A stretch of DNA of 64,000 nucleotides from Candidatus Aldehydirespirator catecholifindens. Its GTDB lineage: Bacteria > Actinomycetota > Acidimicrobiia > Acidimicrobiales > Aldehydirespiratoraceae. A model generated the notes under the pieces. It searched no databases, was not told where the DNA came from, and worked only from the letters and a program-made list of their open reading frames with translations. Below are positions 33,774-48,754 of the stretch, piece after piece. Where the stretch lies: assembly GCA_028283245.1 (NCBI GenBank), contig JAPYNU010000006.1, forward strand, positions 1,542 to 65,541. The letters run 5' to 3'. Numbering within the stretch: the stretch's first letter is position 1; each line of letters opens with the position of its first letter. The position numbers and the translations under genes are program-made.

Positions 33774-34472
33774 ATGAATCAGCAGTCGACCCCAAGCGCC
33801 GGTGATCAGCATTCGACCGAACCGAGCACAACCCAACCGACCGAATCGGCTGAAGCTGCTGAGTCTGACCGTGCCGTGGCCAGCGAGCCCAGAGCGTCTG
33901 CTGTTAGCTCGCCCATGCCGGATCAGCAGTCAGAGCCCGAACTGAGCCCAGACGCACTGCTAGAGCCTCGAAGAGCCCCACCGCCGCGCACCGCTGTAGG
34001 GAGAGCTCTGCGAACCCGGACTAATCAGCGACTTCGTGCTCGCCGGGTGCGTCGGCTGGTGCGACACATCGAACCGTGGTCAGTCCTCAAAGTGTCGCTG
34101 ATTCTTTATTTCTGTGTTTGGGTAATCATGCTGTTCGTAGGGGTGACTTTATGGAATCTGGCCGAGAGTTCTGGCTTAGTGTCAAACATCGAAAACTTTG
34201 TAGTGGAACTCTTCGCTCTGGAGTCTTTCACGATCAACGCTGACCAGATTTTTCGTATAGCCGCGGTCGGGGGGCTGGTGATGGTGGTGGCCGGCAGCGG
34301 ACTAACCGTTCTGGTTGCAGTGCTTTTTAATCTGATCAGCGATGTCACTGGCGGTGTGCGCTTGACGGTGGTTGAAGAAGAAACAGCCAGACCTCGGGCA
34401 CGGCGAGGCCGCCGCCGAGTGCTGGTGGCTGCCCCTCCTCCGAATTCCCCAGATCCCCGAACTCGCCGTTAA
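33774..34472 (+). CDS. DUF3566-type transmembrane protein (Rv0007-like)
   Basis: A disordered N-terminus, then RRVRRLVRHIEPWSVLKVSLILYFCVWVI.... Same position after gyrA as Rv0007. Confidence 0.7.
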   Translation: MNQQSTPSAGDQHSTEPSTTQPTESAEAAESDRAVASEPRASAVSSPMPDQQSEPELSPDALLEPRRAPPPRTAVGRALRTRTNQRLRARRVRRLVRHIEPWSVLKVSLILYFCVWVIMLFVGVTLWNLAESSGLVSNIENFVVELFALESFTINADQIFRIAAVGGLVMVVAGSGLTVLVAVLFNLISDVTGGVRLTVVEEETARPRARRGRRRVLVAAPPPNSPDPRTRR

Positions 34473-34533
34473 AGGCCGACAACAACAAAAAACAAGCACA
34501 GTCGCAGTTTCTGCGGCTAGCGTGTGACACGCT

Positions 34534-34607
<74 letters not shown>

Positions 34608-34774
34608 CAAATTCCGCCGTTTCGCTGTTTTGCCCAACAACTCCCGGAGGCTGCTTTGGCCGCAGGATTCGTCGCTTTGATTCGCCGCACGATCGTTGCT
34701 GTGGTTGTGGGAATGGCGGTAGCGGCGGTTTTACGAGTGCGGGGCCGTGGTGGTGTTCCGCCCCAGACAGGCGG

Positions 34775-43090: not shown

Positions 43091-43116
43091 CCATCGCGCG
43101 ACTAAGCGGCTTTGCC

Positions 43117-43140
43117 GGTATATTTTCTGGTATATTTTCT
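43117..43140. repeat. Perfect 12-bp tandem duplication GGTATATTTTCT x2 in the promoter region of the 209-aa/XRE-ImmA pair
   Basis: Read directly; AT-rich, 50-73 nt upstream of the GTG at 43190. Confidence 0.9.
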
Positions 43141-43189
43141 ATCTAAATCCCTGCGCCCGCGCGCTAGCCGATGAAACGGAGGCAAACAA

Positions 43190-43819
43190 GTGCAGTCCGA
43201 GGAGCTACAGACTCTCCGAAACAAGGCTCGAGTCCTTGATGAAATAGGCGAGAAAGTGCGGTGCGCTCTCGCGGACGTAGTTAATGCAGCCAGAAAAGAC
43301 CTCAACGAGTACCGAAAGACTTGTCGAGACTTTGCGACGCATTCGTCGCCTCGCGGGATGGCGAACTGGATCCATGATCGGATCTGGTACCACGCACGGC
43401 ACCTGCTGGATTCAATTGATGATGTTGTCTGCCACGAGAAGGGATCCACTAAAGAGATCATCGTGCGAGATCGGTATCGCATACGCCTGAAACGACATAG
43501 ACGGTTGGCTGATGTCGCTACATATCCAACGCAGGGCGCGCTCAACTTCATGGAGCAGCCCGAAGGCCAGCTTGTGTTAGCGGGCATGGAACAGCTTCGC
43601 TTGATCTGCGGTTACCAGTGGGATAATGACTCCGGCGAGATAGGGCCAGCCGTGCTATCCATGAGGGATGGAACCAAGAACGTAATATGGGTTCACGAGC
43701 TGAATGGCACCGAGCAGGCGGCGACACCATTGCCTGGCCGGGATGCTCCAAGTTCGGCTGTCGTGCGAGATCGACTTGATGGGATGTTTGAAGAGAGACA
43801 GCGCCGTCAGCAGTCATGA
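43190..43819 (+). CDS. Hypothetical protein, no recognisable domain
   Basis: 209 aa. The GTG start is preceded by GGAGG, and the stop overlaps the next start (ATGA). The amino-acid composition is protein-like, whereas the antisense ORF 43102-43587 is Arg/Ser/Cys-rich shadow. Confidence 0.55.
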   Translation: MQSEELQTLRNKARVLDEIGEKVRCALADVVNAARKDLNEYRKTCRDFATHSSPRGMANWIHDRIWYHARHLLDSIDDVVCHEKGSTKEIIVRDRYRIRLKRHRRLADVATYPTQGALNFMEQPEGQLVLAGMEQLRLICGYQWDNDSGEIGPAVLSMRDGTKNVIWVHELNGTEQAATPLPGRDAPSSAVVRDRLDGMFEERQRRQQS

Positions 43820-44865
43820 GCCTTGGTGAAGCCCTGGTAACGACCCGGCGCGCTCGGGCGATAACACAAGAAGAGTTGGCTGATTCGACTGGTATCACCC
43901 AGGCAGCGTTGTCTCGTTACGAGAACGATCTGAGAGAACCAAGCCAAGAAACCCTCAACACGCTGGCAGCGGCACTCGGCGTAACCCCCGATTTTCTACA
44001 GCTGGCCGATAGAGCGCAAGGGGCGTTTATGGTGGATGCTCACATGCGCCGCCGCCGCACGGCGAAGGCGACCGTCTGGCGTCGACTCGAAGCACGTCTG
44101 AACGTGTATCGCATGCATGTTCGGCTCTTGATTAGAGAAGTGGAGATTGGGCCGCAGCTGGCCTTGCCGCTGTTTGATCCGCTGGAGCACTCGCCTACCG
44201 ACGCGGCACGCTTCGTTCGGATGCAGTGGCGTATGCCGTCAGGCCCTGTGCGTGATCTCATCGGATGGCTGGAGGCGGCAGGCTGCGTGGTGATCGCCGA
44301 GGATTTCGGTTTGATGACCGGTGGCGGCAGGGTGGACGGGCTGTCTCAATGGGCTTCCGACTCGCCAGTAATGCTGGTCAACAGCCGTGCCCCGACGGAC
44401 CGATTGCGGCTCACCCTGGCGCATGAACTCGCTCATATATGTATGCACAACGATCAGCTCGGCGGTGATCCAGAGCAAGAAGCGAATGACTTTGCGGCGG
44501 AGTTTCTGATGCCAGCAGATTCGATTCGTCCCGAACTTCGCAACCTCAGCATCGGCAGGCTTCATGAACTCAAGCGCTATTGGGGAGTTTCAATGCAGGC
44601 ACTCATTGAGCGCGGTTATCGGCTCGGGACGCTTTCAGCTAGTCAGCGCACCAGCTTCTATAAGACTTTCAGCGCTCGTGGCTGGCGCGCCAACGAACCT
44701 CTCAGCAACGAACTCCCACTGGAGCGGCCACAGTTAGCTCAGCGACTTGGCCAGGTTCTGATGCAGCGAGGTCTCACTGCCAACGAGGTGATCGGCATTG
44801 CTGGCGCAGTGCCCGGTCACGACTATCCGTTCTTTTTGCCCAGACCACACCTCGCTGCTGTGTGA
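43816..44865 (+). CDS. Fused XRE-family HTH regulator and ImmA/IrrE (COG2856) zinc metalloprotease
   Basis: N-terminal HTH ITQEELADSTGITQAALSRYENDLREPS; the central domain has HEXXH (LAHELAHICMH) and the downstream EANDFAAEFLMP, typical of ImmA/IrrE. Confidence 0.8.
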   Translation: MSLGEALVTTRRARAITQEELADSTGITQAALSRYENDLREPSQETLNTLAAALGVTPDFLQLADRAQGAFMVDAHMRRRRTAKATVWRRLEARLNVYRMHVRLLIREVEIGPQLALPLFDPLEHSPTDAARFVRMQWRMPSGPVRDLIGWLEAAGCVVIAEDFGLMTGGGRVDGLSQWASDSPVMLVNSRAPTDRLRLTLAHELAHICMHNDQLGGDPEQEANDFAAEFLMPADSIRPELRNLSIGRLHELKRYWGVSMQALIERGYRLGTLSASQRTSFYKTFSARGWRANEPLSNELPLERPQLAQRLGQVLMQRGLTANEVIGIAGAVPGHDYPFFLPRPHLAAV

Positions 44866-44913
44866 GTCACTGCTTTGTGAATGGTGCCTGTTGAGTCGGG
44901 AGCGTCATGAGCG

Positions 44914-45363
44914 TTGTTGGGGCTAGAGTCCTCGTTTGTGACAGACACAGATTATGCGCCTAGCCCGCAGGCTTTTGTTGCTGATCATGTTGCGCGCTAT
45001 CTCGCTAGCAGCGGCGGAGACGGCTTTGAGTTCGAAGGTGCCCAGTGCGTGATCCTCACCACCGTCGGTCGCAAAACCGGCAGTCTGCGACGCACGCCGC
45101 TGATCCGTGTCACCGACGGAGATCGCTATCTGCTGGTGGCTTCAAGGGGCGGCGCTCCGACTCATCCCATGTGGTATCACAACTTGGTGGACAACCCTGA
45201 GGTCACGATCCAGGATCGCGACATGGTTCATAAGCTACGGGCACGCACCGCCACGCCCGACGAGAAGGCTGCATTGTGGCATTTGGCTGTGGAGCAATGG
45301 CCTGACTACGCCGAGTATCAGGCACGAACCGACCGCGACATACCTCTGGTGATTTGCGAATAA
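44914..45363 (+). CDS. Deazaflavin (F420)-dependent nitroreductase family protein (DUF385/Ddn-like)
   Basis: TVGRKTGSLRRTPL..., VASRGGAPTHPMWYHNLVDNPEVTIQ and WP.Y..YQ motifs. Start uncertain (TTG 44914 or GTG 44938). Confidence 0.78.
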   Translation: MLGLESSFVTDTDYAPSPQAFVADHVARYLASSGGDGFEFEGAQCVILTTVGRKTGSLRRTPLIRVTDGDRYLLVASRGGAPTHPMWYHNLVDNPEVTIQDRDMVHKLRARTATPDEKAALWHLAVEQWPDYAEYQARTDRDIPLVICE

Positions 45364-48130: not shown

Positions 48131-48754
48131 CTAGCGCCAAAACTGATCAGTTCGGAGAGCTTCGTGTAGATGCTCTATTGGCCAAACCTCAATGTTGTCG
48201 CCGGTTCTGAAGGCACGCTGCCCGCGATAGATGAGAATACGACGGTTCAGGCCATCAAGATCGGCTACAGCTCGCAGACCTTTGAGCATGGTGGTGTTGT
48301 ACCGTTGAGCTGCCTTGACTTCTAGGGCCAGATGCTGACGATCTCGGGTGAGCATGAAGTCAACTTCGACAGCGGCCTCGGCGGCAGACCAGTAGCCAAT
48401 GTCGTCATAGATGTGTTGATGCTCGTTATGGGCTCGAAGTTGCCCCAGAACCCAGCCCTCAAGCAGTGCTCCCCGCTCTTCAGCGACGATCGCCCCAAGC
48501 TGCCGCTTAATTGCGCGCACTAGGCCGGGATCAGCCCAGTACAGCTTGGGGCGGCGCCGCTCTCGTGACCGAAGCTTGGCCTCAAAGGCAGGCAGTTGTA
48601 CGGCCAGCAGATCAGCGAAAAGAGCTTCGTCAAGCAGGTCTAGGCGCAAAGCGTCGGGAAGAGCCTGTTTGGCCCAAGTGCTCTTGCCAACACCTCTTAT
48701 GCCAAGAAGGAAGAAACTCTGCTGCGGCACTTGAGCATGCCGCGTGTAAACCAC
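48131..48754 (-). pseudogene. DUF4143-type AAA ATPase, apparently internally truncated
   Basis: Walker A LGIRGVGKST at residues ~17-26 is followed almost immediately by the KLYW.DPGLV... DUF4143 portion. At 207 aa versus the usual ~400 aa, most of the AAA_14 domain seems to be missing. Confidence 0.45.

Follow-up and report, generated by a model that had tools for sequence, protein, structure and literature searches.

An XRE-M78 fusion protein and its unannotated partner family in Acidimicrobiales, actinophages and plasmids: a putative Rosmer-type toxin-antitoxin module

The DNA analysed here, called the window throughout, is a stretch of 64,000 nucleotides (nt) of Candidatus Aldehydirespirator catecholifindens (Actinomycetota, Acidimicrobiales), taken from contig JAPYNU010000006.1, positions 1,542 to 65,541. 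On its forward strand lies a pair of overlapping genes, A and B, examined here as a putative toxin-antitoxin (TA) or defence module. According to the list of open reading frames (ORFs) and the raw sequence, gene A (43190..43819) encodes a protein of 209 amino acids (aa) with the N-terminus MQSEELQTLRNKARVLDEIGEK, and gene B (43816..44865) a protein of 349 aa. The start codon of A is GTG, not ATG, and the Shine-Dalgarno sequence GGAGG is located 7 nt 5' of it, at 43178-43182; B starts with ATG. In the raw sequence, the stop codon of A (TGA) and the start codon of B share bases within the tetranucleotide ATGA at 43816-43819, the overlap from which translational coupling had been proposed in an earlier reading of the letters alone (below, the sequence-only reading). 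The place that this reading gave to the pair, between a molybdoenzyme gene and a Ddn-like gene, agrees with the Pfam domains of the neighbours, a molybdopterin oxidoreductase upstream and an F420H2_quin_red (Ddn-like) protein downstream.

Protein B is the recognisable member of the pair. The fusion of an XRE helix-turn-helix (HTH) with an HEXXH protease, already perceived in its sequence, is borne out by Pfam, which places HTH_3 at residues 11-61 (E 6.6e-16) and Peptidase_M78 at residues 153-266 (E 6.6e-19), with HELAH, the HEXXH motif, at residues 203-207. B matches all 14 RmrA models of PADLOC over its full length (residues about 4-325) at E-values from 1.9e-53 to 1.4e-24. The PADLOC capP and capH models match by separate domains only (E 9e-17 and 4e-10, against 1.9e-53 for the best RmrA model). 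Among the PHROGs, phrog_2439 is matched at E 7.7e-79, whereas the NCBIfam model of the spr1629 family repressor/antitoxin gives 118 bits, under its cutoff of 335 bits. B is thus a putative RmrA-like antitoxin/repressor that, judging from this difference in bits, belongs to a subfamily separate from spr1629.

In an alignment of 28 B homologues, the HTH domain (residues 1-65, 43816..44010) includes a recognition helix, (V/I)TQAALSRYEN, that is near-invariant across the subfamily; the nearest solved HTHs are those of ICEBs1 ImmR and P22 C2. It is followed by a linker (residues 69-100, 44020..44115) with the pattern GA..VDAHMRR..TAK..W..LEA.LN..R, which is covered by no Pfam model. Residues 66-150 hold 18 invariant positions in the same alignment, and the conservation of the linker equals that of the catalytic core. 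This region is a candidate for self-cleavage or for contact with a toxin. The M78 protease domain delimited by Pfam (44272..44613) carries HELAH at 44422-44436 and then E..A..FA.E.LMP, which is at least 95% conserved. Both HEXXH and the fusion of HTH and protease are found in 28/28 homologues.

For protein A, to which the sequence-only reading could assign no motif, comparisons with Pfam, PADLOC, NCBIfam, PHROGs, and PDB sequences indeed gave nothing significant. When 72 members of its family were compared with Pfam and PADLOC, only scattered noise was obtained, the commonest being Rv0078B with 4 members at E 0.007. A profile of A gave 0 matches at E<=10 against PDB sequences, and the phage, plasmid and remote homologues of A have no PADLOC match either. 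A nevertheless belongs to a genuine family: 231 clusters at 50% identity match it at E<=1e-3, a number that falls to 149 at E<=1e-10, and most have 200-210 aa. At 90% identity, 47 clusters match, none with a Pfam domain, and their sole name is "hypothetical protein". The ratio of nonsynonymous to synonymous substitutions (dN/dS) of A is 0.31 and 0.27 in comparison with the related loci L001 and L036 (loci are numbered with the prefix L), that of B being about 0.10 and that of the molybdoenzyme 0.06. A is a real gene family under purifying selection, not a chance ORF, and the alternative of a non-coding frame, which the sequence-only reading had kept in view, fails on the 231 clusters and a dN/dS of about 0.3. 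A minus-strand ORF antisense to A (43102-43587, 161 aa) is taken as spurious since conservation and dN/dS fit the frame of A.

The product of A is soluble, devoid of transmembrane segments, and has an isoelectric point of 7.7. Its structure was predicted by AlphaFold2 with an alignment of 72 sequences, a single-sequence model having reached a predicted local distance difference test (pLDDT) of only 45. The resulting model (pLDDT 88.9, predicted template modelling score 0.78) comprises helices within residues 2-73, three strands in 79-103, a helix at 115-121, three strands in 136-170, and a tail of lower confidence. Residue conservation was derived from column statistics on 151 sequences. The most conserved motif, R99-x-K101-R102-H103 (43484..43498), is located on the predicted strand beta3 (96-103), where K101 is present in 151/151 sequences, R99 in 149/151, and H103 in 146/151. 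Other conserved residues are R55, N59, H62 and D63 on a helix, R88 and E89 on beta2, and further along T114, Y142, W144 and W167. Amid the variable tail (pLDDT 61-77), a family motif G-P-x-x-P-x-[IV]-[DE]-L reads P187-S-S-A-V-V in the window (43748..43765), with P187 in 136/151 and P190 in 116/151 sequences; that it could serve for docking or be cleaved is speculative.

The association of A with B was followed in 2 genome loci, 25 metagenome loci (sequence downstream of A being available for 19 of them), 8 look-ups of encoding contigs, 8 phage records, and 5 Rhodococcus plasmids. In all loci with DNA downstream of an intact A, a homologue of B comes directly next on the same strand. The 8 phage records with A are the 8 best records for B, and likewise the 5 plasmid records with A are the 5 best for B, beyond which the identity of B falls from 49% to at most 39.5%. 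Because the records of A coincide with the top records of B before this drop, the B subfamily is dedicated to A. Where A lacks a B, it is always a truncated remnant: a truncated fragment in L025 and a fragment of 49 residues beside an insertion sequence (IS) in L027, and no housekeeping annotation is found among the homologues of A. The gene-neighbourhood comparison and the search for partnerless or housekeeping homologues, both put forward by the sequence-only reading, thus speak for its proposal of a TA-like or defence module with A as an undescribed effector.

The reverse situation, B with a broken A, is encountered in two loci syntenic with the window, in which A was inactivated independently. 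In L002 (6001-6640), A carries a +1 frameshift in an A-run and an in-frame TAG at Q127; in L043 (4727-5357), a +1 frameshift lies about 12 nt from the site of the first one. Both frameshifts fall near residue about 84, where the helical domain of A meets its beta domain, and B is intact in both cases. Such an asymmetric decay, in which A is broken with B kept and intact A without B is absent, is as expected for a toxin, and argues for a toxic A.

Another conserved feature of the locus is a cis element upstream of A. In the window, it is a tandem 12-nt repeat, GGTATATTTTCT twice (43117..43140, forward strand), and is the probable promoter/operator; no copy other than these two units is present in the 64 kb. 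TATATT boxes are located at 43119-43124 and 43131-43136, and a TG at 43128-43129 precedes the second, which becomes an extended -10 box. The element TGGTATATTTTCYGGTATGAATTCG, with two GGTAT boxes 12 nt apart (GGTAT-N7-GGTAT), is kept in 29/29 non-redundant A-B loci, including those of phages and plasmids, L032 having a single mismatch to it. When the upstream DNA of these 29 loci is aligned, about 18 nt reach nearly the maximum information content, between flanks that lack conservation; protein A, at 32-50% identity across the same loci, is far less conserved than this DNA. Unit 1 can be read as an extended -10 box (TGnTATATT), and in most loci an ATG located 7 nt downstream of the -10 box, within unit 2, starts A. 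Leaderless mRNAs are known in Actinobacteria, and the transcript of A-B would be leaderless in most loci.

Other arrangements of the start are found around the same element. Four loci (L013, L015, L019, L024) have two full units, with an ATG located 7-8 nt beyond unit 2. In L004 (~2223-2275) and L032 (7961-8005), the ATG of the motif opens an upstream ORF (uORF) of 14 codons, e.g., MNSLDNATVSASSR before its stop, which overlaps the start of A as ATGA or GTGA. L034 (upstream of 8001) is grouped with them as a uORF locus, the uORF being read out in L004 and L032 only. In this subgroup, the closest to the lineage of the window, the layout looks like an intermediate between leaderless and Shine-Dalgarno-led starts. 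In the window, L001, L002, and L036, the motif has lost its ATG, and a leader of about 46 nt that contains a Shine-Dalgarno sequence follows; the leader of the window (43141..43189) includes the GGAGG mentioned above, and L001 conserves the stretch GGAGGnAAACnA-GTG.

In unit 2, the GGTAT and the TTC are kept more strictly than the coding sequence would require. If the near-invariant recognition helix of B is also considered, the simplest reading is a direct-repeat operator with two sites, overlapping the promoter, and TGGTATATTTTCYGGTATGAATTCG would be both the promoter and the probable operator for B. A scan with the sigma-70 consensus gave no -35/-10 promoter, the proposed one being an extended -10 box without a -35 box, and the terminator-like hairpin reported by the same scan at 43113-43132 is the repeat itself. 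No Rfam RNA was found in the A-B region. A possible use of TGGTATATTTTCYGGTATGAATTCG to drive other toxins was considered by an exact-motif scan of IMG/VR; it yielded 7 matches, 3 of which are chance occurrences in AT-rich unrelated phages, and gave no evidence for such a use.

The pair is found in chromosomes of Actinomycetota, in Gordonia and Mycobacterium phages, and in Rhodococcus plasmids. In L032 and L034, it is inserted between hsdR and hsdS/hsdM of a type I restriction-modification (R-M) system; in L035, it adjoins AbiEii, Mrr, and a large helicase gene; in L028, it adjoins RepSA, the replication gene of an actinomycete integrative and conjugative element (AICE). It belongs to the integrase/immunity region of Gordonia phage Howe (L039, gp35/gp34) and to the Mycobacterium abscessus prophage prophiGD44-1 (L038, gp28/gp29), and is carried near the end of Rhodococcus linear plasmids, adjoining IS elements (L040). 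Two further loci (L030, L037) are at a housekeeping DoxX-PEPcase site. The neighbours vary by lineage, and no conserved third gene, separate XRE gene, or conserved downstream regulon accompanies A-B. The two R-M loci (L032 1894-14350, L034 4578-13923) also show, near A-B, an AAA_15/AAA_21 ATPase gene, an NTase/NTase_sub_bind pair or an Nmad2 gene, and a SocA_Panacea gene; the region is a compact defence island of an uncultured actinobacterium.

Within the Acidimicrobiales, the pair occupies a shared site upstream of the Ddn-like gene in L001, L002, L036, and L043, and in three of these four it is also downstream of the molybdoenzyme gene. The synonymous divergence (dS) is above 1 for B and the neighbours and 0.6-0.9 for A. 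Since the same chromosomal position is kept in at least four related genomes, A-B is old in this order and not a recent insertion. At a much larger distance, the plasmid pRA04 of the alphaproteobacterium Roseicitreum antarcticum carries a remote homologue of the whole pair (L041 1884-3544). Its A-like protein has 196 aa and is homologous to A (hhalign 97.5%, E 6e-12), and its B-like protein is 39.5% identical to B and matches RmrA models at 2e-62. Upstream of this pair, an inverted repeat, TTGTCGTT...AACGACAA, is present instead of the GGTAT direct repeats, and the recognition helix of the B-like protein differs as well; this single case is consistent with a co-variation of operator and recognition helix. 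A search of IMG/VR with a smaller alignment found no related locus, and the phage and plasmid accessions of A or B are not mentioned in the supplements of Ernits et al. 2023 or in the full-text literature searched.

Compared with the sequence-only reading, three elements are added: B already falls in the RmrA class, a cis element is conserved, and the pair is not recent in the lineage of the window. Taken as a whole, the RmrA-like B, the strict coupling, the asymmetric decay, the mobile and defence contexts, the conserved promoter/operator, and the ATGA overlap lead to the favoured reading, to which a probability of roughly 60% is given: A-B is a Rosmer-type TA or abortive-defence module that represses its own expression and whose toxin represents a new family. 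On that basis, transcription would start from the extended -10 box in the GGTAT repeats, giving a leaderless transcript in most relatives and, in the lineage of the window, a transcript with a leader of about 46 nt and a Shine-Dalgarno sequence. A and B would be translated together owing to the ATGA overlap, and the XRE HTH of B would bind the two GGTAT boxes over the -10 box and the start site, repressing the operon. B would keep A harmless by binding it, by means of its M78 protease domain, or both. Inactivation or titration of B, whether by phage infection, by stress, or because the element is lost, would free A, and growth arrest would follow. The toxicity of A, its neutralisation by B, the binding to the operator, the trigger, and the target are all deduced rather than observed, and a role in phage defence is suggested by the location of the pair in R-M/Abi islands and prophage immunity regions.

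Concerning its activity, A would most likely act on a nucleic acid or nucleotide substrate by way of the basic strand R99-x-K101-R-H and the acidic residues D63/E89. The top, non-significant Foldseek matches of the model are repeatedly PD-(D/E)XK nucleases in both libraries searched (EcoRV, ThaI, RecE, Cas4-like, and VRR-NUC). The order of elements in A, with helix 54-73, strands 79-84/87-92/96-103, helix 115-121, and strand 136-145, fits the alpha-beta-beta-beta-alpha-beta arrangement of these enzymes, and D63 is placed on the helix, E89 on beta2, and the invariant K101 on beta3. A more ambitious proposal is that A founds an undescribed family of enzymatic toxins, with a diverged PD-(D/E)XK-like or another nucleic-acid-directed fold and an invariant Lys on the R-x-K-R-H strand, and serves as the effector of a dedicated abortive-infection module that has spread through Actinomycetota, their phages, and their plasmids and has distant relatives in Proteobacteria. 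B would then be a single-chain repressor, protease, and antitoxin, self-cleaved at the invariant AHMRR linker and binding an unusual direct-repeat operator fused to a leaderless start. In this complete form, the proposal is tentative and doubtful.

Several observations weigh against the Rosmer-type reading or against the nuclease lead that it includes. Foldseek searches of the A model against PDB and BFVD returned nothing significant (best E 0.03, TM-score at most 0.31), so that the structural check suggested by the sequence-only reading produced a confident model and no significant match. On beta3, the motif R99-x-K101 presents an Arg at the (D/E) position of (D/E)xK, and the signature is therefore absent; in addition, E89 is conserved in about 83-85% of the sequences and is gone in the remote Roseicitreum homologue. 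A is consequently not assigned to the PD-(D/E)XK nucleases, for lack of a significant fold match and of the catalytic signature, and the likeness seen in the predicted model is a resemblance and a lead, not membership. In classical type II TA systems, the toxin is usually the more conserved partner, and A evolves faster than B (35-50% against 50-66% identity between lineages). As for the decay of A, the frameshift of L043 could be an assembly error. In the Acidimicrobiales, the pair is kept by vertical descent at a single housekeeping locus and resembles a domesticated element more than a selfish one. Finally, A matches no PADLOC RmrT model, so that these models lend nothing to its assignment as Rosmer. 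This bars an automatic PADLOC call, not the functional class, because RmrT families are heterogeneous by definition (PMC10440598).

Among the alternatives, the one that survives best makes B a self-cleaving stress repressor of the ImmR/ImmA or LexA type and A a non-toxic cargo produced on derepression only, for instance a repair or anti-phage nuclease. The invariant HEXXH and the conserved AHMRR linker of B, a possible self-cleavage site, would suit such a switch, as would the overlap of the operator with the promoter, the stable inheritance of the pair in a housekeeping context in the Acidimicrobiales, and the precedents of ImmR/ImmA, DdrO/IrrE, and CapH/CapP (PMC2701414, PMC6868357). However, A and B are co-transcribed and translationally coupled, and derepression would raise B too; no further copy of the operator exists in the window. 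Moreover, the constant presence of B with intact A and the repeated loss of A with B kept are predicted by a toxic A and are not required of a harmless cargo. This alternative is therefore held to be unlikely.

A second alternative considers A as a sensor or co-factor of B that binds a phage or stress cue, the targets of B being elsewhere in the genome or element. It draws on the lack of a recognisable catalytic signature in A, on its helical N-terminal domain, on the Pro-rich tail motif that could dock on B, and on the variability of A, higher than that of B as is often the case for sensors facing phage proteins; three-component circuits have also been predicted around COG2856-Xre fusions (Makarova et al. 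2009). Such a circuit is difficult to reconcile with neighbours that differ in every lineage and include no conserved third gene, and with an operator motif restricted in the window to the A-B promoter, while the invariant Lys and the near-invariant Arg, His, Thr, Tyr, and Trp of A look like an active or binding site. The sensor is thus quite improbable. Least credible of all, at very long odds, is that the window pair is decaying and without function, left over from an old insertion, since, despite the broken A of the syntenic L002 and L043 and the lack of a defence island or mobile gene around the pair, both ORFs are intact in the window, dN/dS is about 0.3 for A and about 0.1 for B, and the promoter repeats and the Shine-Dalgarno sequence are preserved.

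In the window itself, only housekeeping genes are found around A-B, the 64 kb include no second copy of A or B, and no convincing direct or inverted repeats flank the pair as insertion scars. The excess of rare codons that had been noticed by eye holds for A, in which 5.3 of every 100 codons are ATA, AGA, AGG, TTA or CTA, the figure for five neighbouring genes being 2.0 (Fisher p=0.005), and does not hold for B, with 2.9 per 100 (p=0.31); the GC content at third codon positions of both genes is almost equal to that of their neighbours. The start region of B (43813-43828, GTCATGAGCCTTGGTG) resembles, at 88% identity, a segment located just before the Ddn-like ORF (44904-44919, GTCATGAGCGTTGTTG), probably by chance, as the ATG of the latter is out of frame with this ORF. 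Further away, at 33774-34608, a gene for a DUF3566 membrane protein precedes tRNA-Ile(GAT); immediately upstream are two large ORFs (745 and 878 aa), and the arrangement seems to resemble the gyrB-gyrA-DUF3566-tRNA-Ile order near actinobacterial replication origins. On the minus strand, at 48131-48754, an ORF of 206 aa contains a DUF4143 domain only. This domain normally stands C-terminal to an AAA_14 ATPase domain, and the ORF may be a truncated gene.

When set against classical type II TA, A-B has a small, bicistronic, and mobile organization and a conserved operator-like repeat over the promoter, and B would be its DNA-binding, autoregulating antitoxin; it is atypical in that B, with 349 aa, is larger than A, and that A is the less conserved partner. 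Xre-COG2856 fusions beside PIN or RelE toxins (Makarova, Wolf & Koonin 2009; DUF4411, Matelska 2017) have the same regulator architecture, operon logic, and abundance in prophages, whereas A is neither PIN nor RelE and belongs to no Pfam family. ImmR/ImmA of ICEBs1, DdrO/IrrE of Deinococcus, and CapH/CapP of the cyclic oligonucleotide-based antiphage signalling system (CBASS) also combine an XRE repressor with a COG2856/M78 protease, the HTH of B being ImmR-like, and are precedents for protease-driven derepression (PMC2701414, PMC6868357). By analogy, a signal-triggered proteolytic switch in B is plausible. In those systems, however, the two functions are encoded by separate genes, whereas B unites them in one polypeptide, and the sole evident regulated gene is the co-transcribed upstream A, in place of an integrative and conjugative element, a DNA-repair regulon, or a CBASS operon.

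The closest likeness is to RosmerTA (Millman et al. 2022), a two-gene operon in which the antitoxin, RmrA, consists like B of an XRE HTH and an ImmA/M78 Zn-peptidase. As in RosmerTA, an adjacent, co-oriented, and small partner gene, A, is encoded first, at all loci examined, and the pair is also distributed in phages, plasmids, and defence islands. The antitoxin role of RmrA has experimental support, as transformation of delta-rmrA proved impossible (bioRxiv 10.1101/2022.05.11.491447). In NetFlax, the ImmA node D25 is described as a hub antitoxin with many unrelated toxins, 58% of them encoded toxin-first, and the system of Gordonia phage Kita, validated in the same work, possesses a membrane-depolarising RmrT-D5 (Ernits et al. 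2023, PMC10440598). In Streptococcus pneumoniae, RipB/Spr1629 neutralises RipA/Spr1630, the two forming RipAB, a Rosmer TA whose toxin targets DnaN (bioRxiv 10.1101/2025.09.02.673660). A-B is distinguished from these systems by a soluble A, unlike the membrane-depolarising RmrT-D5 of phage Kita, and by a B subfamily strictly tied to one partner family and to one GGTAT-repeat promoter/operator.

For the organism of the window, A-B is a minor accessory module and not a metabolic feature. Its broader value comes from the fact that it is the antitoxin that defines Rosmer-type systems, the toxins being a mixed lot mostly of unknown mechanism. One more putative toxin family, of at least 231 clusters at 50% identity and missed by PADLOC and Pfam, is delimited here, and the sharply defined cis element makes the regulation of the pair directly testable. 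Members occur in culturable and genetically tractable systems, namely Gordonia phage Howe (gp35/gp34), M. abscessus prophiGD44-1 (gp28/gp29), and the Rhodococcus plasmids, in which A-B could serve the study of prophage-mediated defence in actinophages and of the mechanism of ImmA-type antitoxins. With respect to the systems already described, the fused HTH-ImmA architecture is that of a named antitoxin class, RmrA of RosmerTA, whereas what is new is the A family, the fact that it is strictly paired with a single RmrA subfamily, and a conserved promoter/operator of the leaderless kind.

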